Source: Eledone cirrhosa
Taxonomy: Eukaryota
Direction of reading: 5' to 3'
Length of the DNA: 64,000 nucleotides
Assembly (NCBI GenBank): GCA_964016885.1
Contig: OZ024741.1
Coordinates: 33,232,001-33,296,000, forward strand
Position numbers and translations under genes: made by a program
Shown here: one piece after another, positions 3,244 through 63,362 of the stretch
How positions within the stretch are numbered: the stretch's first letter is position 1
Layout of the letters: every line of letters starts with the position of its first letter
Notes under the pieces: model-generated
The model's database searches: none
What the model was told of the DNA's origin: nothing
The model's input: only the letters and a program-made list of their open reading frames with translations

Positions 3244-3346
3244 TATTTATAAAACAAATCTGTATTTTATCTGATGAAAGCGCACCATAATTTGCCTTGG
3301 TTGCCCTTGAAATATGTATAATAAAATAAATATGGTTTTATAAATA
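3244..3346 (+). ncRNA. Type I hammerhead ribozyme motif
   Basis: TATTTTAT-CTGATGA-stem II-GAA-ATATGTAT-A-ATAAAATA; 8-bp stem I extended by a perfect 12-bp helix TATTTATAAAAC/GTTTTATAAATA; predicted cleavage AUA after 3320. Confidence 0.7.
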
Positions 3347-10794: not shown

Positions 10795-11130
10795 CCGAGA
10801 ATAAGTAAGAGACGTAGTCACTGCTTTAAAACTCATAGCGAATGGTCTTCTAAATGTTTTTAATTAAACATACAGTATATTGCCAAATATACTATATATA
10901 CATTCATGTATACATCGCTATTTCAGAGCACCAATCCTAATACCTAATTTTTACTGGACCGGCAACCGCTCTGTGTAATCAGCTCTGGAATTCTATAAGA
11001 ATCCAGCCTCTATGATTCTCGATGAAGGCAACTGAGTGTGTGGTCTTGATAAACGCTCACAAGCTAGAAACAGACTGTTTGTCGGCCGCTCTCTGTTGTT
11101 TTTGCCGAGAATAAGTAAGTGACATAGTCA
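10795..11130 (+). mobile_element. Retrozyme-like element, 310-nt monomer plus 26-nt terminal redundancy (copy 1)
   Basis: Direct repeat CCGAGAATAAGTAAG.GAC.TAGTCA at 10795-10820 and 11105-11130; contains an HHR; homologous to, but permuted relative to, 62936-63250. Confidence 0.75.
11015..11112 (+). ncRNA. Type I hammerhead ribozyme, U3-A8 variant (stem II partly decayed)
   Basis: GGTC-TTGATAA-ACGCTCACAAGCTA-GAA-ACAGA CTG TTTGT-C-GGCC with extended stem I; predicted cleavage GUC after 11083. Confidence 0.65.
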
Positions 11131-11270
11131 GATGATTGAACGTCTGAAAGTATATGCTTTCCTTATGCATATTAACGGCTGAGCAGCCTAATTTGCATAT
11201 CGAGTGAGTTAATCGGCCGTTAATATGCATAAGGAAAGTATATACTTTCAGACGTTGAATCATCTGGCAG
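11130..11270 (+). promoter_or_regulatory. Candidate compact snRNA/H1-type promoter (octamer + TATA-like), present as an inverted duplication
   Basis: ATTTGCAT at 11191-11198 (on the inverted arm); TATA-like AG(C/T)ATATACTTTCA, then 14 nt, then TGGCAGG; same motifs and spacing at 17343-17422. Confidence 0.4.
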
Positions 11271-11332
11271 GAAGGTATACGATGCTGACGATAGCTAATA
11301 AGCTTGAAACTAGTACATCGTTCCTTTGCCAG
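11264..11332 (+). ncRNA. Type I hammerhead ribozyme with palindromic stem III
   Basis: CTGGCA-GGAA-..-CGATG-CTGACGA-T AGCT AATA AGCT T-GAA-ACTAGT-A-CATCG-TTCC-TT-TGCCAG; predicted cleavage GUA after 11315. Confidence 0.75.
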
Positions 11333-11339
11333 TGTTAAA

Positions 11340-11552
11340 CAAAAGGGCAACGATGGTTGCTAAACACTGTACGGCTTAATTCGGGATTTTTGTTTACAAA
11401 AACACCGAGCATTATAATAAATGTTCGGTAAATCCATACGTACATATATATATGTGTGCATGTATGTATATATATATACATACTACTGTACGTCTGTATA
11501 CATATATGTATGTACGTATACATACTTATATATATGTATGTACGTATACATA

Positions 11553-11608
<56 letters not shown>

Positions 11609-11758
11609 TATGTATAAGTACATACATATATACATACATGCACACATATATTATGTACTAATGGATTTACTGAACATTTATTATAATGCTCGGTGTTTTT
11701 GTAAACAAACATCCCGAATTAAGCCGTACAGTGTTTAGCAACCATCGTTGCCCTTTTG
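11340..11758. repeat. Long inverted repeat (family X, tail-to-tail) around (TA)n
   Basis: ~105-bp arms AAAAGGGCAACGATGGTTGCTAAAC... / ...GTTTAGCAACCATCGTTGCCCTTTT. Confidence 0.85.
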
Positions 11759-12778: not shown

Positions 12779-12833
12779 ACTGCTATATATATTTCAGTGA
12801 CAGCCATCTTTGGCTGTGACCTCTTCAGGCAGT
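12779..12833 (-). ncRNA. Type I hammerhead ribozyme motif
   Basis: Minus strand ACTGC-CTGAAGA-GGTCACAGCCA AAGA TGGCTGTCACT-GAA-ATATATAT-A-GCAGT. Confidence 0.72.
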
Positions 12834-12970: not shown

Positions 12971-13027
<57 letters not shown>

Positions 13028-13155
13028 GTGAGGTTTTTTTTACAAAATGAAAAATAACCGAGGTGTCCTACACGAGTGAAAGTATAAAGAAAAAGAGATG
13101 AAATCGAAAATGCAACTGGAGTCTTATTTTTTTTTTAAATATATTTATTTGGTTC

Positions 13156-13191
13156 CTTTACCGGTTTCGCAGTTCTTCTGCTTTTCAAAAG
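13156..13191 (-). ncRNA. Minimal hammerhead ribozyme, U3-A8 variant
   Basis: Minus strand CTT-TTGAAAA-GCAG AAGAA CTGC-GAA-ACCGGT-A-AAG. Confidence 0.65.
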
Positions 13192-13220
13192 TAGAGTTGA
13201 GATGGAGGGTCTGTGGTTTT

Positions 13221-13275
<55 letters not shown>

Positions 13276-17056: not shown

Positions 17057-17103
17057 TGCTGACAATCGTTTCTTCCAAATTTTCGTTTGAAATCATCGGA
17101 GCA
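17057..17103 (-). ncRNA. Type I hammerhead ribozyme motif (U4C)
   Basis: Minus strand TGCT-CCGATGA-TTTCAAA CGAAAA TTTGGAA-GAA-ACGATTGT-C-AGCA. Confidence 0.62.
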
Positions 17104-19399: not shown

Positions 19400-20115
19400 A
19401 ATCGTCCCTAGAGTAAGTATGCCGAGTAAGAGACCCGAGAGTATGGGACATGAGATGAGGACCGGAGATTAAGGGACCCGAATTAGAGAACCGAGAGTAA
19501 CTATGTCATGTAGGGGACCTGAGAGGAAAGGACTCGAAAGTAAGTAGCTCAAGTAAACGACCCGAAAGTAAGTATCTCAAGTAAGGGACCCGAGAGTAAG
19601 TATCCCGATAATGGACCCAAGAGTATCTCAAGTAAAGGACCCTGTAGTATGTATCTCAAGTAAGGGACCCAAGAGTAAGTATCTCAATTAAGGGACCCGA
19701 GATTATCTCAAGTAATGGACCCGAGAGTAAGTATCCCAAGTAAGGGACCAGAGAATAAGTATCTCATGTAAGGGCCCCGTGAGTAAGTATCGCAAGTAAG
19801 GGACCCGAGAGTAAGTATCTCAAGTAAGGGATCCGAGAGGAAGTATCCTGAGTAAGGGACCCGAGAGTAAGTATCTCGAGTAAGGGACCCGAGAGTAAGT
19901 AGGTCAAGTAAGGGACCCGAGTGTAACTATTAGAGTAAGGGACCCGAGAGTAAGTAGATCAAGTAAGGGACCCGAGAATAAGTTGGTCAAGTAAGGGACC
20001 CGAGAATAAGTAGGCCAAGTAAGGGACCCGAGATTAAGTATCCCAAGTAAGGGACTCGAGAGTAAGTATCCCAAGTAAGGGACCCGAGTAAGAGACCCGA
20101 AAGTAAGTATCCCAG
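19400..20115. repeat. 28-bp minisatellite
   Basis: AAGTAAGGGACCCGAGAGTAAGTATCTC, about 25 diverged copies. Confidence 0.92.
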
Positions 20116-36998: not shown

Positions 36999-38804
36999 CT
37001 ACAGGCTGAGGTAGAGAGAAGGCCCATTCACACGGGCCATTCTCGCAACTTTCACCCACCTTTCATAAAACTGGCTGGAGTGGAGCACCTCTCTCTCCAT
37101 CCTGATCCTTCTTCCGAAATGGTATCGGAAGAAAAGGACCAGTTGTTGGCCGGAGAGAAAGGTGTCCGACCTCAGCCCTTTCAGACGCCTCCGCCATATA
37201 GCCTCTTTTACCATGGCTATTACACAGAGGAAGACCGCCTCTCCTTCATTTTTGAAGGGGGGAGGCGGCTTGACCGTTACAATGGACTCGGTGGTCAACC
37301 TAATTGGTCCCACCCGTGACAGCAGTTGTTCGACATAGCCCCACAGATCGGCAACGCCCGGGCAGTGCACCAATGCGTGCGCGACGGATTCCTCGTCGCG
37401 CACGCATCTGGGACAGATCTTTTTCGAGGGGTCCCTACCCGGGCGCCCGTGTCTGTAGAGATTATCCCGAACGGGCAGAGGCCCTCGGTAGCACTGCCAG
37501 GCCAAGGACTTCTGGAAGTTGTCCATAGGTCCCGGGCCGAAAGTCCTACCGAATAGACTGGCCAGTTCGTCCTCCTCCATGCCTAGGTTTTCTCCGAGGG
37601 CGTCGTCGCACCCGCTAACCACCAGCCCTCTATAGAATGACGAGGTGGATTCTCCACTGACAGTCGGGTCCGCCTGCCAGAGAGCCGTGAGCGCCAGGGC
37701 ACACTCGGTGTGCCAGTCGCCCAGTTTTCTCGGTCTTTGCTTCACCCAGGACTGCAGCTCGGTGAGCGAGACGAGCCTCGGGAAGGTTCGCCTCACAAAC
37801 GGGGCCCACACCGGTTGACCGGTGAGGAATACCTGGAGGTGCCTTAGCCTCAATGCGTGTTTACGCATTTTTAGCCACGGCATCCCCAGCCCTCCTTTCA
37901 AAGGGTGTTGACAGCAGATGGATCTCCTCACCAGAGGAGACCTCTTTTTCCAAAGGAAATAAAAGAGGGCGCGCTCCATTTTGGCAAGGATCTCACCCGG
38001 GCAAGGTCCGACAGTCAAGCGGTAATAGATGACGGACGCTATGTAAGCGTTCGCCACCTCCGCCCGACCTTTCAGGGATAGTTTGCACTCGGCCCACTTC
38101 TGGGTCAGTGCAAATACCCTATTCGTCACCTCACCCCAGTTTTTCTCCACCTGGAGGTCCGGTCCGAACCAGACCCCAAGCAACTTCACCGGGCCCTCCG
38201 TCCACCGTCCGACGATACCGTCGCACGACATCGCTTTGCCCCTCCACTCGCCGAGTTGCAAAGCGACTGACTTGTCCCGGTTCAGCTTAGCCCCTGTCAA
38301 CCTTTCGTACTCCTCCAGTAAGGTGCCGATTGCCTCGATTTCCGAGGTGGTCGACACCATTACTGTTACGTCATCGGCATAGGCCGACACCACTTTGCGC
38401 AATCCCGGTTCCAAAGGGATGCCCTGCAACAACTCCAACTTCCGCAGTAGTGGCTCGAGAGCCAATACATACAGAAGGGAGGAGAGAGGGCATCCCTGTC
38501 GGATGGAGCGGGTGATTTCGAATGGCTCCGAAAGGTAGCCGTTCACCTTGACTCTAGAGCAGATGCGGCTGCTGTGCATGGCAGTGATCCAGCCCCTGAA
38601 AACGGGTCCGAACCCAGCCGCCGCTAGCACCGCATCCAGGTAACCATGGTCCACCCTATCGAACGCTTTAGGCTGATCTAAATTTATCAGGGCCCCACCA
38701 AATCCGGGTTCGTTCCCAACCCTCTCTATGATGTATCGCATGAGGTGGAGGTTGTCGTGGATGGACCTGGACGGGATAGCGCATGTCTGCGCATCTCCCA
38801 CCAT
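36999..38804 (-). pseudogene. Tx1 ORF2 segment 3: reverse transcriptase core + zinc knuckle
   Basis: LDQPKAFDRVDH, RQGCPLS, AYADDV, LGVWF, GGLG, CPRCVRDEESVAHALVHC. Confidence 0.92.
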
Positions 38805-39298
38805 GACCCCACGACAAGCGCCAACCTCTTCGCTAACACCTTGGCCAAAATCTTTAACTCTGCATTTAGCAGATTTATGGGCCTAAAATTACTAATGTCA
38901 TCCCCCTTGTTCTCGTCCTTTCTCACTAGCGAGACTACGCCCTTGGTCACAGAACAGGGAATTCTCCCGTTCTGTTGCCAGTTGCAGTAGACCGCCTCGA
39001 GGAGATCGGGGAACAAGTCCGGCATATTAATATATAGTTCGTAGGGCAGACCATCGAGCCCTGGAGATTTGCGTTTGCCGCATAGGCTCAGCATGTCCCC
39101 TATTTCAGCAGCTGAGATCGGCCCGTCGCAGGACCTCGCCTCCCTGTCCGAAAGACGCGGCAGGCCGTCGAGGTATGGACCGAAATCCACATTCCCAACA
39201 GGCCCCCCACCCCTCCCGAACAATTGATCAAAGTACCTTTGAAAGGCCTCGCACATTTGCTTAGGTTCAAGGATCAACCGTCCATCCTGGTCTCGCAA
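38726..39298 (-). pseudogene. Tx1 ORF2 segment 2: RT N-terminal region
   Basis: KSPGLDGLPYELY, NFRPINLLNAELKILAKVLAKRL. Confidence 0.9.
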
Positions 39299-39331
39299 AG
39301 ACCGGATAGTGGATTTAATCCCACTTTTCGC

Positions 39332-40404
39332 TTATGTCACGCGGGCCCAGCTAACAGCTTTGGTCCCCTCGTTTCCCAGAGCACGTATTTTGCTTCGGAC
39401 AACGCAGCTTTCGTGGTTCAAGGCCGTTCTCGACGCTTGCACTCTGGCCACGTTGCCGCTTCTCATTGCCTCTTCAACATTAACTACCAACTCCCTTTCC
39501 TTCCTATTTCTATCTGAGGCTAACTCCTTACTAACTCCTATTGAAACTACTCTAATCTCTCTTTTTAGAGAGCCCCACCACCTGCTGTTGACGATGGCGC
39601 CCGTCAACCGCTCCTTAACTAAGGTTCTAATCCGGTCCCTGTAAGCTCTACTTGCCGGTAAGGACAAGTTGAGCTTCCAGTAACCGGGTCCCTGCCTATG
39701 CGTTCTATCAAGGTGGACTACGCAGGTCACTAACTTGTGGTCTGAATAGCCCACCATGAGCATTTTTGGACAACTTAAAAAGTCCCTATCCTTAATTCTA
39801 ACTAAGAACCTATCTAGGTACGATCTAGATTGACCACTGTTATTTGACCAAGTCCAGGTTGGCACAGTCGGAAAATCTAGTCGGTATCTATCGGCCAGGT
39901 CAAATCGGCCGATTAACCCCTTGAGGCTGTTACACCCTCCTCTATCGGGACATGCCCCTACATAGTCCCAACGTGCATCTAGGATACCATTCCAGTCCCC
40001 CACTAAAACCAAGGAGAGGGACGTCCCTAGAAAAGACTCCACACGATGGAAGAAGTCCGACCGCATTGCCCCAAAGGGGGCGTATACGGCGACAAGCCTA
40101 AAAGCTGCGCCTTCACCACTGCCAAGGTCCAGAACCACGAGTTGACCCTCCGGGTCCAAGTGTACCGTCTGTGTTGCGAGACCCAGATGTTTTTGCAGCA
40201 GAACGACAACCCCACTCCCACCTCCGGGCTGACAGAGAGATGTGTGCATCTCAAATTCATCAAAGGTCGGGGCTAGCTGTCGCACGCTGCTGATCCGGGC
40301 CTCGCAAATAACCATCACATTTATATATTGTGACCTGAGGTCATTTAGAAGTTTAGCTTGCTTCCAAGGTGAGCCCAGGCCACGCGCATTTAGACAACCT
40401 ACTC
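39332..40404 (-). pseudogene. Tx1 ORF2 segment 1: apurinic-like endonuclease
   Basis: CLNARGL, ICE, VYAP, GDWN, YLDRFLV, SDHK, GPGYWKLN. Confidence 0.9.
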
Positions 40405-40646
40405 TTTCGTGGCTATTATGCAAAAACATTACATCATAGAGATGCAGTATTTTTGTCAGGTTTGCCGACTTATCAAGAGGATACCGCATTAAGAGTTTCA
40501 AAACACGTCCGTAGGACGCGAGATAGAATCCCGAAAGGCGGAGCGGGAACTTATCACGTGATACAGCGTCAAGAAACAGAGCTAAGCTTCTTACAACCAA
40601 GAGAAAAAATACTGCATCTGTATGTTTTTGCATAATAGCCACGAAA
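40405..40646. repeat. Inverted-repeat element abutting the Tx1 5' end
   Basis: TTTCGTGGCTATTATGCAAAAACAT..AGATGCAGTATTTTT and its reverse complement at 40605-40646. Confidence 0.75.
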
Positions 40647-40787
40647 CTACGTAGTCGAGGATAATGAAGGAATGTAGGCATATTATATCTTTTTATTTAT
40701 ATCTAATGTTTCTTCTTTCTTTATAATGTATTATATAGCTCTGATATTGAATCAATTTAATCCATTCAGATTATTTTCTCCCTATTA

Positions 40788-42675: not shown

Positions 42676-45600
42676 CAGGCAGGCTGACATGAAGGTAACC
42701 AGGTAGACAGTCTGACATGCAGGCAGGCTGACATGAAGGTAACCAGACAGACAGGCTGACATGCAGGCAGGCTGACATGAAGGTAACCAGGTAGGCAGGC
42801 TGACATGCAGGCAGGCTGACATGAAGGTAACCAGGTAGGCAGGCTGACATGCAGGCAGGCTGACATGAAGGTAACCAGGTAGACAGTCTGACATGCAGGC
42901 AGACTGACATGAAGGTAACCAGGTAGACAGTCTGACATGCAGGCAGACTGACATGAAGGTAACCAGGTAGACAGTCTGACATGCAGGCAGGCTGACATGA
43001 AGGTAACCAGGTAGGCAGGCTGACATGCAGGCAGACTGACATGAAGGTAACCAGGTAGACAGTCTGACATGCAGGCAGGCTGACATGAAGGTAACCAGGT
43101 AGACAGTCTGACATGCAGGCAGGCTGACATGAAGGTAACCAGGTAGACAGTCTGACATGCAGGCAGGCTGACATGAAGGTAACCAGGTAGGCAGTCTGAC
43201 ATGCAGGCAGACTGACATGAAGGTAACCAGGTAGACAGTCTGACATGCAGGCAGGCTGACATGAAGGTAACCAGGTAGGCAGGCTGACATGCAGGCAGGC
43301 TGACATGAAGGTAACCAGGTAGGCAGGCTGACATGCAGGCAGGCTGACATGAAGGTAACCAGGTAGACAGTCTGACATGCAGGCAGGCTGACATGAAGGT
43401 AACCAGGTAGGCAGGCTGACATGAAGGCAGGCTGACATGAAGGTAACCAGGTAGACAGTCTGACATGCAGGCAGGCTGACATGAAGGTAACCAGACAGAC
43501 AGTCTGACATGCAGGCAGGCTGACATGAAGGTAACCAGGTAGACAGTCTGACATGCAGGCAGGCTGACATGAAGGTAACCAGGTAGGCAGGCTGACATGC
43601 AGGCAGGCTGACATGAAGGTAACCAGGTAGACAGTCTGACATGCAGGCAGGCTGACATGAAGGTAACCAGACAGACAGTCTGACATGCAGGCAGGCTGAC
43701 ATGAAGGTAACCAGGTAGACAGTCTGACATGCAGGCAGACTGACATGAAGGTAACCAGGTAGACAGTCTGACATGCAGGCAGACTGACATGAAGGTAACC
43801 AGGTAGGCAGTCTGACATGCAGGCAGACTGACATGAAGGTAACCAGGTAGACAGTCTGACATGCAGGCAGGCTGACATGAAGGTAACCAGGTAGACAGTC
43901 TGACATGCAGGCAGGCTGACATGAAGGTAACCAGGTAGGCAGGCTGACATGCAGGCAGGCTGACATGAAGGTAACCAGGTAGACAGTCTGACATGCAGGC
44001 AGGCTGACATGAAGGTAACCAGGTAGACAGTCTGACATGCAGGCAGACTGACATGAAGGTAACCAGGTAGACAGTCTGACATGCAGGCAGACTGACATGA
44101 AGGTAACCAGGTAGGCAGGCTGACATGCAGGCAGGCTGACATGAAGGTAACCAGGTAGGCAGGCTGACATGCAGGCAGACTGACATGAAGGTAACCAGGT
44201 AGACAGTCTGACATGCAGGCAGGCTGACATGAAGGTAACCAGGTAGGCAGGCTGACATGCAGGCAGGCTGACATGAAGGTAACCAGGTAGGCAGGCTGAC
44301 ATGCAGGCAGGCTGACATGAAGGTAACCAGGTAGACAGTCTGACATGCAGGCAGGCTGACATGAAGGTAACCAGGTAGGCAGGCTGACATGAAGGCAGGC
44401 TGACATGAAGGTAACCAGGTAGACAGTCTGACATGCAGGCAGGCTGACATGAAGGTAACCAGACAGACAGTCTGACATGCAGGCAGACTGACATGAAGGT
44501 AACCAGGTAGGCAGTCTGACATGCAGGCAGGCTGACATGAAGGTAACCAGGTAGGCAGGCTGACATGCAGGCAGGCTGACATGAAGGTAACCAGGTAGGC
44601 AGGCTGACATGCAGGCAGGCTGACATGAAGGTAACCAGGTAGGCAGTCTGACATGCAGGCAGACTGACATGAAGGTAACCAGGTAGACAGTCTGACATGC
44701 AGGCAGGCTGACATGAAGGTAACCAGGTAGGCAGGCTGACATGCAGGCAGGCTGACATGAAGGTAACCAGGTAGACAGTCTGACATGCAGGCAGGCTGAC
44801 ATGAAGGTAACCAGGTAGGCAGGCTGACATGCAGGCAGGCTGACATGAAGGTAACCAGGTAGACAGTCTGACATGCAGGCAGGCTGACATGAAGGTAACC
44901 AGGTAGGCAGTCTGACATGCAGGCAGACTGACATGAAGGTAACCAGGTAGACAGTCTGACATGCAGGCAGACTGACATGAAGGTAACCAGGTAGACAGTC
45001 TGACATGCAGGCAGGCTGACATGAAGGTAACCAGGTAGACAGTCTGACATGCAGGCAGGCTGACATGAAGGTAACCAGGTAGGCAGGCTGACATGCAGGC
45101 AGGCTGACATGAAGGTAACCAGGTAGACAGTCTGACATGCAGGCAGGCTGACATGAAGGTAACCAGGTAGGCAGGCTGACATGCAGGCAGGCTGACATGA
45201 AGGTAACCAGGTAGACAGTCTGACATGCAGGCAGGCTGACATGAAGGTAACCAGGTAGACAGTCTGACATGCAGGCAGGCTGACATGAAGGTAACCAGGT
45301 AGGCAGGCTGACATGCAGGCAGGCTGACATGAAGGTAACCAGGTAGACAGTCTGACATGCAGGCAGGCTGACATGAAGGTAACCAGGTAGGCAGTCTGAC
45401 ATGCAGGCAGACTGACATGAAGGTAACCAGGTAGACAGTCTGACATGCAGGCAGACTGACATGAAGGTAACCAGGTAGACAGTCTGACATGCAGGCAGGC
45501 TGACATGAAGGTAACCAGGTAGACAGTCTGACATGCAGGCAGGCTGACATGAAGGTAACCAGGTAGGCAGGCTGACATGCAGGCAGGCTGACATGAAGGT

Positions 45601-48600
45601 AACCAGGTAGACAGTCTGACATGCAGGCAGGCTGACATGAAGGTAACCAGGTAGGCAGGCTGACATGCAGGCAGGCTGACATGAAGGTAACCAGGTAGAC
45701 AGTCTGACATGCAGGCAGGCTGACATGAAGGTAACCAGGTAGGCAGGCTGACATGCAGGCAGGCTGACATGAAGGTAACCAGGTAGGCAGGCTGACATGC
45801 AGGCAGGCTGACATGAAGGTAACCAGGTAGACAGTCTGACATGCAGGCAGGCTGACATGAAGGTAACCAGGTAGGCAGGCTGACATGCAGGCAGGCTGAC
45901 ATGAAGGTAACCAGGTAGGCAGTCTGACATGCAGGCAGACTGACATGAAGGTAACCAGGTAGACAGTCTGACATGCAGGCAGGCTGACATGAAGGTAACC
46001 AGGTAGGCAGGCTGACATGCAGGCAGGCTGACATGAAGGTAACCAGGTAGACAGTCTGACATGCAGGCAGGCTGACATGAAGGTAACCAGGTAGGCAGGC
46101 TGACATGCAGGCAGGCTGACATGAAGGTAACCAGGTAGACAGTCTGACATGCAGGCAGGCTGACATGAAGGTAACCAGGTAGGCAGGCTGACATGCAGGC
46201 AGGCTGACATGAAGGTAACCAGGTAGACAGTCTGACATGCAGGCAGGCTGACATGAAGGTAACCAGGTAGGCAGGCTGACATGCAGGCAGGCTGACATGA
46301 AGGTAACCAGGTAGACAGTCTGACATGCAGGCAGGCTGACATGAAGGTAACCAGGTAGGCAGGCTGACATGCAGGCAGGCTGACATGAAGGTAACCAGGT
46401 AGACAGTCTGACATGCAGGCAGGCTGACATGAAGGTAACCAGGTAGACAGTCTGACATGCAGGCAGGCTGACATGAAGGTAACCAGGTAGACAGTCTGAC
46501 ATGCAGGCAGGCTGACATGAAGGTAACCAGGTAGACAGGCTGACATGCAGGCAGGCTGACATGAAGGTAACCAGGTAGGCAGGCTGACATGCAGGCAGGC
46601 TGACATGAAGGTAACCAGATAGGCAGGCTGACATGCAGGCAGGCTGACATGAAGGTAACCAGGTAGACAGTCTGACATGCAGGCAGGCTGACATGAAGGT
46701 AACCAGGTAGGCAGGCTGACATGCAGGCAGGCTGACATGAAGGTAACCAGGTAGACAGTCTGACATGCAGGCAGGCTGACATGAAGGTAACCAGGTAGGC
46801 AGGCTGACATGCAGGCAGGCTGACATGAAGGTAACCAGGTAGACAGTCTGACATGCAGGCAGGCTGACATGAAGGTAACCAGGTAGACAGTCTGACATGC
46901 AGGCAGACTGACATGAAGGTAACCAGGTAGGCAGGCTGACATGCAGGCAGGCTGACATGAAGGTAACCAGGTAGACAGTCTGACATGCAGGCAGGCTGAC
47001 ATGAAGGTAACCAGGTAGACAGTCTGACATGCAGGCAGGCTGACATGAAGGTAACCAGGTAGGCAGGCTGACATGCAGGCAGGCTGACATGAAGGTAACC
47101 AGGTAGGCAGGCTGACATGCAGGCAGGCTGACATGAAGGTAACCAGGTAGACAGTCTGACATGCAGGCAGGCTGACATGAAGGTAACCAGGTAGACAGTC
47201 TGACATGCAGGCAGGCTGACATGAAGGTAACCAGGTAGACAGTCTGACATGCAGGCAGGCTGACATGAAGGTAACCAGGTAGACAGTCTGACATGCAGGC
47301 AGGCTGACATGAAGGTAACCAGGTAAGCAGTCTGACATGCAGGCAGGCTGACATGAAGGTAACCAGGTAGACAGTCTGACATGCAGGCAGGCTGACATGA
47401 AGGTAACCAGGTAGACAGTCTGACATGCAGGCAGGCTGACATGAAGGTAACCAGGTAGACAGTCTGACATGCAGGCAGGCTGACATGAAGGTAACCAGGT
47501 AGACAGTCTGACATGCAGGCAGGCTGACATGAAGGTAACCAGGTAGACAGTCTGACATGCAGGCAGGCTGACATGAAGGTAACCAGGTAGGCAGGCTGAC
47601 ATGCAGGCAGACTGACATGAAGGTAACCAGGTAGGCAGTCTGACATGCAGGCAGGCTGACATGAAGGTAACCAGGTAAGCAGTCTGACATGCAGGCAGAC
47701 TGACATGAAGGTAACCAGGTAGGCAGGCTGACATGCAGGCAGGCTGACATGAAGGTAACCAGGTAGACAGTCTGACATGCAGGCAGGCTGACATGAAGGT
47801 AACCAGGTAGACAGTCTGACATGCAGGCAGGCTGACATGAAGGTAACCAGGTAGACAGTCTGACATGCAGGCAGGCTGACATGAAGGTAACCAGGTAAGC
47901 AGTCTGACATGCAGGCAGGCTGACATGAAGGTAACCAGGTAGGCAGGCTGACATGCAGGCAGGCTGACATGAAGGTAACCAGGTAGACAGTCTGACATGC
48001 AGGCAGACTGACATGAAGGTAACCAGGTAGACAGTCTGACATGCAGGCAGGCTGACATGAAGGTAACCAGGTAGGCAGGCTGACATGCAGGCAGGCTGAC
48101 ATGAAGGTAACCAGGTAGGCAGGCTGACATGCAGGCAGGCTGACATGAAGGTAACCAGGTAAGCAGTCTGACATGCAGGCAGGCTGACATGAAGGTAACC
48201 AGGTAGGCAGTCTGACATGCAGGCAGGCTGACATGAAGGTAACCAGGTAGACAGTCTGACATGCAGGCAGGCTGACATGAAGGTAACCAGGTAGGCAGGC
48301 TGACATGCAGGCAGGCTGACATGAAGGTAACCAGGTAGGCAGGCTGACATGCAGGCAGGCTGACATGAAGGTAACCAGGTAGACAGTCTGACATGCAGGC
48401 AGGCTGACATGAAGGTAACCAGGTAGACAGTCTGACATGCAGGCAGGCTGACATGAAGGTAACCAGGTAGACAGTCTGACATGCAGGCAGGCTGACATGA
48501 AGGTAACCAGGTAGGCAGTCTGACATGCAGGCAGGCTGACATGAAGGTAACCAGGTAGACAGTCTGACATGCAGGCAGGCTGACATGAAGGTAACCAGGT

Positions 48601-51600
48601 AGGCAGGCTGACATGCAGGCAGGCTGACATGAAGGTAACCAGGTAGACAGTCTGACATGCAGGCAGGCTGACATGAAGGTAACCAGGTAGACAGTCTGAC
48701 ATGCAGGCAGGCTGACATGAAGGTAACCAGGTAGGCAGGCTGACATGCAGGCAGGCTGACATGAAGGTAACCAGGTAGGCAGGCTGACATGAAGGCAGGC
48801 TGACATGAAGGTAACCAGGTAGGCAGGCTGACATGCAGGCAGGCTGACATGAAGGTAACCAGGTAGGCAGTCTGACATGCAGGCAGGCTGACATGAAGGT
48901 AACCAGGTAGACAGTCTGACATGCAGGCAGGCTGACATGAAGGTAACCAGGTAGGCAGGCTGACATGCAGGCAGGCTGACATGAAGGTAACCAGGTAGGC
49001 AGGCTGACATGAAGGCAGGCTGACATGAAGGTAACCAGGTAGGCAGGCTGACATGCAGGCAGGCTGACATGAAGGTAACCAGGTAGGCAGGCTGACATGC
49101 AGGCAGGCTGACATGAAGGTAACCAGGTAGGCAGGCTGACATGAAGGCAGGCTGACATGAAGGTAACCAGGTAGACAGTCTGACATGCAGGCAGGCTGAC
49201 ATGAAGGTAACCAGGTAGACAGTCTGACATGCAGGCAGGCTGACATGAAGGTAACCAGGTAGGCAGGCTGACATGCAGGCAGGCTGACATGAAGGTAACC
49301 AGGTAGACAGTCTGACATGCAGGCAGGCTGACATGAAGGTAACCAGGTAGGCAGGCTGACATGCAGGCAGGCTGACATGAAGGTAACCAGGTAGGCAGGC
49401 TGACATGAAGGCAGGCTGACATGAAGGTAACCAGGTAGGCAGGCTGACATGCAGGCAGGCTGACATGAAGGTAACCAGGTAGGCAGGCTGACATGCAGGC
49501 AGGCTGACATGAAGGTAACCAGGTAGGCAGGCTGACATGAAGGCAGGCTGACATGAAGGTAACCAGGTAGACAGTCTGACATGCAGGCAGGCTGACATGA
49601 AGGTAACCAGGTAGGCAGTCTGACATGCAGGCAGGCTGACATGAAGGTAACCAGGTAGACAGTCTGACATGCAGGCAGTCTGACATGAAGGTAACCAGGT
49701 AGACAGTCTGACATGCAGGCAGGCTGACATGAAGGTAACCAGGTAGACAGTCTGACATGCAGGCAGGCTGACATGAAGGTAACCAGGTAGGCAGGCTGAC
49801 ATGCAGGCAGGCTGACATGAAGGTAACCAGGTAGGCAGGCTGACATGAAGGCAGGCTGACATGAAGGTAACCAGGTAGGCAGGCTGACATGCAGGCAGGC
49901 TGACATGAAGGTAACCAGGTAGGCAGGCTGACATGCAGGCAGGCTGACATGAAGGTAACCAGGTAGGCAGGCTGACATGAAGGCAGGCTGACATGAAGGT
50001 AACCAGGTAGACAGTCTGACATGCAGGCAGGCTGACATGAAGGTAACCAGGTAGACAGTCTGACATGCAGGCAGGCTGACATGAAGGTAACCAGGTAGGC
50101 AGGCTGACATGCAGGCAGGCTGACATGAAGGTAACCAGGTAGACAGTCTGACATGCAGGCAGACTGACATGAAGGTAACCAGGTAGACAGTCTGACATGC
50201 AGGCAGGCTGACATGAAGGTAACCAGGTAGGCAGGCTGACATGCAGGCAGGCTGACATGAAGGTAACCAGGTAGACAGTCTGACATGCAGGCAGGCTGAC
50301 ATGAAGGTAACCAGGTAGGCAGGCTGACATGCAGGCAGGCTGACATGAAGGTAACCAGGTAGGCAGGCTGACATGAAGGCAGGCTGACATGAAGGTAACC
50401 AGGTAGGCAGGCTGACATGCAGGCAGGCTGACATGAAGGTAACCAGGTAGGCAGGCTGACATGCAGGCAGGCTGACATGAAGGTAACCAGGTAGGCAGGC
50501 TGACATGCAGGCAGACTGACATGAAGGTAACCAGGTAGGCAGGCTGACATGCAGGCAGGCTGACATGAAGGTAACCAGGTAGGCAGGCTGACATGAAGGC
50601 AGGCTGACATGAAGGTAACCAGGTAGACAGTCTGACATGCAGGCAGGCTGACATGAAGGTAACCAGGTAGGCAGTCTGACATGCAGGCAGGCTGACATGA
50701 AGGTAACCAGGTAGACAGTCTGACATGCAGGCAGGCTGACATGAAGGTAACCAGGTAGGCAGGCTGACATGCAGGCAGGCTGACATGAAGGTAACCAGGT
50801 AGACAGTCTGACATGCAGGCAGGCTGACATGAAGGTAACCAGGTAGGCAGGCTGACATGCAGGCAGGCTGACATGAAGGTAACCAGGTAGGCAGGCTGAC
50901 ATGCAGGCAGGCTGACATGAAGGTAACCAGGTAGGCAGGCTGACATGCAGGCAGGCTGACATGAAGGTAACCAGGTAGACAGTCTGACATGCAGGCAGGC
51001 TGACATGAAGGTAACCAGGTAGGCAGTCTGACATGCAGGCAGGCTGACATGAAGGTAACCAGGTAGACAGTCTGACATGCAGGCAGGCTGACATGAAGGT
51101 AACCAGGTAGGCAGGCTGACATGCAGGCAGGCTGACATGAAGGTAACCAGGTAGACAGTCTGACATGCAGGCAGGCTGACATGAAGGTAACCAGGTAGGC
51201 AGGCTGACATGCAGGCAGGCTGACATGAAGGTAACCAGGTAGACAGTCTGACATGCAGGCAGGCTGACATGAAGGTAACCAGGTAGGCAGGCTGACATGC
51301 AGGCAGGCTGACATGAAGGTAACCAGGTAGGCAGGCTGACATGCAGGCAGGCTGACATGAAGGTAACCAGGTAGGCAGGCTGACATGCAGGCAGGCTGAC
51401 ATGAAGGTAACCAGGTAGGCAGGCTGACATGAAGGCAGGCTGACATGAAGGTAACCAGGTAGACAGTCTGACATGCAGGCAGGCTGACATGAAGGTAACC
51501 AGGTAGACAGTCTGACATGCAGGCAGGCTGACATGAAGGTAACCAGGTAGGCAGGCTGACATGCAGGCAGGCTGACATGAAGGTAACCAGGTAGGCAGGC

Positions 51601-51656
51601 TGACATGCAGGCAGGCTGACATGCAGGCAGGCTGACATGAAGGTAACCAGGTAGGC
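42676..51656. repeat. 44-bp satellite/minisatellite, about 204 copies (~9 kb)
   Basis: AGGCTGACATGAAGGTAACCAGGTAG(A/G)CAG(T/G)CTGACATGCAGGC. Confidence 0.98.
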
Positions 51657-62380: not shown

Positions 62381-62534
62381 AAGGAAATATATATAAGCTA
62401 ACCACTGTTTACACTTGATTTTTTTATCCTGTGTTCATCGCACGTAAAAATATATACTACAGAGCAACATATTCCATCAGCTATATTTCAAATACACAAT
62501 ATATATATATTGTATTTTGTATTTATATATACAT

Positions 62535-62769
62535 ATACATGAGTATGTACACGCACATACATATATGTATACAGACGTACAGTAGTATGTATATATATAT
62601 ATATACACATACATGCACACATATATATATATATGTACGTATGGATTCACCGAACATTTATTATAATGCTCGGTGTGTTTGTAAACAAACATCCCGTATT
62701 ACGGCTTAATACGGGATGTTTGTTTACAAACACACCGAGCATTATAATAAATGTTCGGTGAATCCATAC

Positions 62770-62809
<40 letters not shown>

Positions 62810-62876
62810 ATGTATGTATATATATATACATACTACTGTACGTCTGTATACATATATGTATGTGCGTGTACATACT

Positions 62877-62880
<4 letters not shown>
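62535..62880. repeat. Long palindrome (family X, head-to-head)
   Basis: Centre CCCGTATTA-CGGCT-TAATACGGG; ~165-bp arms homologous to 11370-11530. Confidence 0.85.
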
Positions 62881-62935
<55 letters not shown>

Positions 62936-62937
<2 letters not shown>

Positions 62938-63245
62938 TAGAATTGGAGCTCTGAAATAGCAATATATATATATGGATGTATATATAATGTATTTTGCAAT
63001 ACACTTTATGCTTAATTAAAAGCATTTTGAAGACCGTATGCTATTGTTTTAGAGTAGTGACAAATTCACTTACTTTAATCTCAGCAAACAGGGGAGATAA
63101 GCCGACAAGGTCTTGTTTCGCTTTTGTTGAAGCTTATCAAGGCTAACTACCCCTCCTGTCTACTGAGATTACTGATGTTATATTCTTATAGAATACTAGT
63201 AAATAATCAGGAGCTGATTATACAGAACGATTGCTGGTCAGGCAG

Positions 63246-63250
<5 letters not shown>
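62936..63250 (-). mobile_element. Retrozyme-like element copy 2 (circular permutation of 10795-11130)
   Basis: Same blocks in different order; flanked by (TA)n on both sides. Confidence 0.75.
63077..63170 (-). ncRNA. Complete type I hammerhead ribozyme, U3-A8 variant
   Basis: AATCTCAGTAGACAGG..AGCC-TTGATAA-GCTT CAACAA AAGC-GAA-ACAA GACC TTGT-C-GGCT..CCTGTTTGCTGAGATT; predicted cleavage between 63104 and 63103. Confidence 0.8.
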
Positions 63251-63276
<26 letters not shown>

Positions 63277-63362
63277 CGATATTAAACAAATGGAAACTAT
63301 ATTTATAAAACCATATTTATTTCGTTATATATATTTCTGGGATATCATATTAAAAATATGGT

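Follow-up and report, generated by a model that had tools for sequence, protein, structure and literature searches.

On its minus strand at 63170-63077, the window (the whole stretch of 64,000 nucleotides of Eledone cirrhosa DNA analysed here) carries a genuine type I hammerhead ribozyme motif, whose U3-A8 core and covarying stems are confirmed at the level of sequence. The motif belongs to a family of young, non-coding ~317-nt non-LTR retrozymes, a class already described from animals. In our preferred explanation, which we consider probable, it is the hammerhead of a solitary young unit of this kind, the RNA of which was likely copied into (TA)n by a Penelope-like retrotransposon (PLE).

The hammerhead motif and its covariation

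The extended hammerhead (63077-63170, minus strand) was delineated from its fold, a structural descriptor, Rfam, and covariation. Its core letters U3-U4-G5-A6-U7-A8-A9, read from the sequence and the alignment, occupy 63140-63134 (U3 at 63140, G5 at 63138, A8 at 63135). They are joined by a 4-bp stem II with a 6-nt loop II (63120-63133), closed by the pair G10.1-C11.1 and backed by sequence and covariation. On the same strand come G12-A13-A14 and a 4-bp stem III with a tetraloop (63105-63116). Across this stem III region, the commonest family type reads as a perfect 12-nt palindrome, which is broken in the window copy. Cleavage is predicted 3′ of C17 of a GUC triplet (63104/63103), based on the sequence and the hammerhead consensus. 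All elements of a type I core are present, namely the 3-8 pair, G5, A6, G12-A13-A14, A15.1-U16.1, and a NUH site. Stem I begins with 4 bp and a 5x3 internal loop, followed by another helix of 4 bp, a single bulged nucleotide, and finally a 16-bp helix that contains exactly two G-U pairs.

A sequence-only reading of this stretch had described the U3-A8 core, the G-C-closed 4-bp stem II, the 4-bp stem III with its tetraloop, and the GUC site, all of which are borne out by the sequence and the fold, and its predicted cleavage position (63104/63103) agrees with C17 at 63104. Its account of stem I was right about the internal loop and about the two G-U pairs of the 16-bp helix, and omitted the 4-bp helix and the 1-nt bulge. 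It had also called this ribozyme the best preserved, which holds within the window, where the site is the sole match to a strict 4/4/4 descriptor, but not in the family, where its loop III A is rare (4 of 45 copies). At that position (63111), 40 of the 45 near-identical copies carry G, 4 carry the A of the window, and 1 has a gap; the G of the family likewise predominates in contigs of X1 and X2, two runs of unknown kind.

The predicted fold of the window hammerhead had a z-score of -5.47, with equal stability in none of 200 shuffles, and the strict descriptor matched once over 300 shuffled windows, which together indicate that the hammerhead is not a product of chance. Its match to Rfam Hammerhead_HH9 (RF02275; E 7.3e-4, 24.5 bits) fell under the gathering score of 52, and a scan of the window at gathering level gave zero matches. 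The motif is like HH9 in the geometry of stem II and loop II, in the stem I internal loop, and in the GUC site, and unlike it in this low score, its 4-bp proximal stem I, and its U3-A8 pair. The GC content of the ribozyme (0.46) compares with 0.277 in the enclosing 2-kb bin. When drawn by hand, the hammerhead fold of the window copy lies 1.2 kcal/mol over the minimum, with stem III pair probabilities of 0.03-0.05.

Covariation was assessed in an alignment of 16 selected related copies from four lineages, or subfamilies. Both sides changed in 15 of the 25 hammerhead pairs, a figure that counts few events since the rows stem from four lineages. These include the 3-8 pair, which is U3-A8 in 9 rows and C3-G8 in 7. 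Paired cells, which are not independent for the same reason, amounted to 94.8%, compared with 40-48% in slid controls, where at most two pairs were changed on both sides. Covariation thus backs three helices with stem I open, the type I arrangement. As regards a possible contact of loop II with the stem I internal loop, the A, C, and A of loop II and two U's of the internal loop are unchanged in 16 of 16 rows and resemble HH9. The U3-A8 pair is a published natural covariation (PMC3088659; PMC4209133), and U3-A8 cores such as this one are known from Cercyon PLEs of Schistosoma.

The window unit, its family, and the insertion footprint

Genome matches and tandem loci delimit a single retrozyme unit of subfamily A around the hammerhead, with one ribozyme and about one lap of the 317-nt unit (62934-63249, minus strand). 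A (TA)n run identified from the sequence and a repeat scan adjoins its 3′ end and represents the insertion target (62881-62933), and another (TA)n run adjoins its 5′ end (63250-63277). The window copy ends at the long one of the two fixed 3′ ends of the family, with the ~25-nt tail between long and short end at 62937-62961. No ORF of at least 150 aa overlaps the unit. Release of a unit requires two ribozymes and this locus holds one, so the window copy cannot excise a monomer or a circle. As a locus it is an ordinary, solitary retrozyme, a dead end that covers about one lap. An older copy, of subfamily B, lies on the plus strand at 10796-11131, with a U3-A8 core at 11046-11052 and an A.A mismatch at the base of stem II. 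It begins elsewhere in the unit, which explains the "permutation" in the earlier description of a permuted ~310-nt element; that description stands, with the unit set at 317 nt by the tandem loci.

Several other repeats surround these copies. The window unit sits in (TA)n at the end of head-to-head 3′ ends of another repeat family (62500-62920), a fuller copy of which (11131-11758) has a C3-G8 hammerhead, a U.U at the base of stem II, and a 130-nt hairpin. Just upstream of the window unit and on the same strand is the 3′ half of a third hammerhead family (63278-63362, minus strand), from which read-through could transcribe the unit. This third family is homologous to a motif at 3263-3328 and to the locus L069, and its core would fall in an N gap. 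No (TA)n separates the subfamily B copy from the second hammerhead family at their junction (11131), and in L119 that second family is fused to a subfamily A 5′ end; both junctions possibly reflect template switching between families. Further hammerhead-like motifs with a short palindromic stem III were seen at 3263-3328 (plus strand) and at 12779-12833, 13156-13191, and 17057-17103 (minus strand), one of the four having C at position 4.

In its own genome (G000, 3.0 Gb), the family yielded 83 matches of 92-100% identity among 39 scored of 1383 candidates. There are four related subfamilies, A (that of the window) and B with U3-A8 cores and C and D with C3-G8 cores; a first look gave 2524 candidates for B, 1993 for C, and 32 for D. 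Units in tandem loci are spaced 315-322 nt apart, in arrays of 2-6. The 29 subfamily A loci studied were the best hits, a choice biased toward full-length young copies, and two of them hold two full tandem units while most hold fewer than two. LTRs, PBS, and PPT are absent from non-LTR retrozymes, which may have a long target-site duplication (TSD); none of the 29 loci has an LTR-like layout, and TSDs are unreadable within (TA)n. The median distance between subfamily A units was 4 within a locus and 14 between loci, and only 45 of 76 units had their nearest neighbour in their own locus. The longest arms come from subfamily D, where the locus L153 (G000:C2:362123800-362130300) holds, within (TA)n, 14 C3-G8 units of 311 nt that are all identical and form opposite arms of 9 and 5, short end left and long end right. 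Arrays consist of pure units without an ORF between them. A contig of X4 that spans a unit junction was dropped as evidence of circles, as it fits tandem DNA equally.

Retrozymes are recognised by a type I hammerhead in tandem units of 150-450 bp that are non-coding and have a GC content below 50%. The family fits this description; tandem units are lacking at the window locus and present at other family loci. With the metazoan non-LTR retrozymes described in PMC7229834 and bioRxiv 10.64898/2026.07.22.740005, the family shares a canonical type I hammerhead, an AT-rich non-coding unit of ~310-320 nt, an occurrence as monomers, dimers, and short arrays, and co-occurrence with PLEs. Axolotl retrozyme families display dimer-dependent cleavage, which is a prediction for the present family. 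It differs from metazoan retrozymes in the U3-A8 core of two of its four subfamilies, in the perfect 12-nt palindrome of stem III, which according to prediction also serves as an anti-core lock, and in insertions into (TA)n that are mostly head-to-head and have two fixed ends. The words "inverted" and "microsatellite" are absent from the main text of PMC7229834, whose supplement shows other invertebrate retrozymes.

A head-to-head inversion occurs in 21 of the 29 best-hit subfamily A loci, with end pairs that are long/short in 16, long/long in 2, short/short in 1, and other in 2. Long/short pairing is thus found in 16 of the 19 loci in which both ends could be classified (p 0.002). Neither of the fixed 3′ ends coincides with the cleavage site; they lie ~140 and ~165 nt 3′ of it, and the short end is ~25 nt upstream of the long one, its exact position blurred by an internal TA run. 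TA-rich DNA adjoins 108 of 148 3′ ends, compared with 19 of 48 5′ ends and a background of 10%. Partial tandems, inverted 5′ arms, a tail at one end, and microsatellite targets are traits of non-autonomous PLEs, and all were seen. Published PLE features include partial tandems, inverted 5′ copies, and a one-sided tail of 30-40 bp (PMC8557442), as well as internal initiation of reverse transcription (PMC11167929). Based on the (TA)n targets, the head-to-head arms, and the two fixed 3′ ends, the insertions of the family are likely to be Penelope-made.

The comparison extends to PLEs with a C-terminal GIY-YIG domain, a Neptune-like zinc-finger motif, and hammerheads in their pLTRs (PMC4209133, PMC8557442, PMC11167929). 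Shared with them are partial tandems, inverted 5′-truncated arms, a one-sided tail, an internal start of reverse transcription, and AT-rich targets. In contrast to these elements, the retrozyme has no ORF, its hammerhead is full and canonical with a long stem I instead of minimal, and in the loci tested no pLTR had homology to it.

Predicted locking of monomers and cleavage of dimers

Folding energies were computed for secondary structure without Mg2+ or the contact between loop II and stem I, both of which favour the active fold. The forms of stem III were counted in 114 subfamily A ribozymes from the fetched loci, a few of which may overlap, and the window copy was excluded from this set. 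Stem III is a perfect 12-nt palindrome in 52 of these ribozymes, a 13-nt form in 24, and the form of the window in 2. For the commonest type, the models pair the 5′ half of stem III with G5, U4, and U3 and with stem I (P 0.95). This lock has a predicted probability of 0.85 in subfamily C, 0.33 in the window copy, 0.29 in D, and 0.04 in B. The predicted cost of the active monomer fold is 5.8 kcal/mol for the commonest type, 2.5 for the window copy, 1.6 for B (median), and 6.8-6.9 for C and D. With B predicted to be active as a monomer and the lock weak in D, locking is not universal in the superfamily.

Dimers gave a different picture from separate monomers. In 10 of 10 natural dimers (9 of subfamily A and 1 of D), the double hammerhead is predicted to be 0.9-6.7 kcal/mol uphill, versus 14.1-22.5 kcal/mol for two separate monomers. 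The active fold of the circle, calculated for the units of these dimers, would be 3.1-7.3 kcal/mol uphill, and the fold of one circle had a z-score of -7.07 (60 shuffles). These predictions suggest that monomers and circles typical of the family are locked by anti-core pairing, and that natural tandem dimers favour the double hammerhead. Restriction of cleavage to multimers by a palindromic stem III is an established idea (PMC4209133).

The G>A variant at 63111 is predicted to weaken both the lock and the palindrome, whose self-duplex would have -8.8 kcal/mol, compared with -19.5 kcal/mol for the 12-nt form. As a consequence, the window copy may cut alone and is probably more able to do so than its relatives. 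The sequence-only reading had called the ribozyme monomer-competent, which these models make plausible for the window copy only, by way of its rare variant (2.5 versus 5.8 kcal/mol), whereas its stem III is predicted to be just 4% populated.

RNAalifold also selects the lock helix, in which two of five pairs change on both sides between subfamilies A and C, a covariation that is weak evidence since it comes from two lineages and stems I and III constrain the bases involved. The pairs 3:15.4 and 2.1:15.5 are C-G and U-A in subfamily C and U-A and C-G in subfamily A. Tentatively, and with more doubt than confidence, we propose from these models that the retrozyme circle turns off its own ribozyme, with the stem III palindrome acting both as a toehold for dimers and as the anti-core strand. 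Under this same reading, the lock would have been retained through the swap from a C3-G8 to a U3-A8 core, and the window copy would represent a naturally occurring, unlocked mutant. Searches of an open-access library returned no animal retrozyme with a direct anti-core helix. If true, this would explain by RNA alone, in this family, why metazoan retrozyme circles avoid linearising themselves, a question left open by PMC7229834. The commonest type, predicted to be locked, and the window copy, predicted to be less so, are natural variants with a one-base difference, which makes the family suitable for testing how abundant circles with a ribozyme escape self-cleavage.

Proposed cycle, rival explanations, and candidate helpers

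Based on these findings, we postulate that a tandem locus would be transcribed and that neighbouring ribozymes would pair through their palindromic stem III into a double hammerhead, excising one unit. A host ligase would close the excised unit (RtcB in published cases). Within monomers and circles, G5, U4, and U3 of the core and stem I would be paired to the 5′ half of stem III, switching the ribozyme off. A cut in (TA)n would then be made by the RT-endonuclease of a PLE, which would copy the circle into cDNA from one DNA end or from both; the copying would begin at two positions inside the unit, ~140 and ~165 nt 3′ of the cleavage site. If read through, the window copy would probably undergo a single cut in cis by means of its loop III variant, with no release of a circle. 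We count against this explanation that 8 of 9 predicted Xenopus retrozyme dimers were uncleaved in vitro (bioRxiv 10.64898/2026.07.22.740005). A PLE origin of metazoan non-LTR retrozymes has been argued in the same source. The two fixed start sites and the (TA)n target are precise enough for the published in vitro PLE assay, which could address whether PLE proteins copy circles.

The circular template is the step on which a somewhat improbable alternative differs: arrays could arise from linear multimeric transcripts of a master locus or from duplication or conversion at the DNA level, the ribozyme only trimming transcripts. Most loci do hold fewer than two units, and hammerhead cleavage is dispensable for insertion of an Anolis PLE in vitro (PMC11167929), but two observations argue against this alternative: one insertion has the same unit throughout its two arms and keeps its long/short pair of ends, and different permutations of one unit occur within the window. 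We consider it unlikely that the ribozyme acts alone in cis throughout the family and ligates its own ~310-nt monomer into a circle. This is set against by the single ribozyme at the window locus, the predicted lock of the commonest family type, and the self-ligation of just 1-3% in tested retrozymes, despite a stem III of 4-5 bp where 1-2 bp are usual in metazoan type I motifs (PMC4209133), a loop II and internal loop like those of HH9, a 2000-fold rise in ligation through tertiary contacts in a Schistosoma ribozyme (PMC6155905), and the predicted monomer activity of subfamily B. Axolotl and mussel retrozyme monomers yielded ~3% and ~1% circles by self-ligation, compared with >80% and ~30% by RtcB (PMC7229834); with such low values and one ribozyme at the locus, the earlier claim that the element is able to circularise its monomer is unsupported.

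It is very unlikely, in our judgement, that the unit is a detached pLTR of an autonomous PLE, present as 5′-truncated copies, and that the ribozyme serves the full element. The insertion footprint equals that of PLE pLTR fragments, and Xenopus retrozymes are homologous to pLTRs (bioRxiv 10.64898/2026.07.22.740005). However, the arrays are of pure units, up to 14 of them identical, with no intervening ORF, and no pLTR homologue was found in 50 GIY-YIG loci of 10597 candidates. PLE loci were sought via the GIY-YIG domain (PF01541). Elements with RT and GIY-YIG are abundant in the genome; the 50 loci in which no pLTR was homologous to the retrozyme unit are a small part of the 10597 candidates. 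One RT and GIY-YIG family combines a minimal U3-A8 hammerhead with (TA)n targets and two fixed ends 68 nt apart (~25 in the retrozyme), and a 5′-truncated pLTR of this candidate helper family, with its minimal U3-A8 hammerhead, lies in the window at 13015-13228 (minus strand).

Profile searches for a parent pLTR returned weak pieces only, one with E 6e-4 to another hammerhead family (L071) and one with E 9e-4 over 60 nt (L036). In blastn, the older copy (subfamily B) matched L074 and L076, but these hits were TA-rich noise and were rejected as parent pLTRs. Six letters common to the long ends of the retrozyme and the U3-A8 PLE were judged weak, subfamilies B and D differing there. The frameshifted LINE-like element at 36999-40696 (minus strand), with APE endonuclease, RVT_1, and zf-RVT domains, was set aside as a partner, its ORFs having no link to the retrozyme.

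Further observations concern PLEs and repeats at other loci and in the window. In L098 (1222-1811), the 3′ end of a PLE pLTR is fused to a 5′-truncated subfamily B unit, all within (TA)n, an arrangement in which template switch and nested insertion are indistinguishable. A near-intact PLE (L061, G000:C1:145868500-145878000) forms a partial tandem with a 4979-bp period; RT and GIY-YIG share a 938-aa frame, and each pLTR has a minimal U3-A8 hammerhead. Its relatives L062, L066, L069, L070, and L072 have 95-98% identity to it. A further C3-G8 hammerhead family is present in L070 (8590-8705) and L073 (3715-3826) as short, perfect head-to-head insertions that end in (TA)n. The window also contains a 9-kb array of a 44-bp unit at 42676-51627 (203 copies, 96% matches) and a 28-bp array at 19530-20088.
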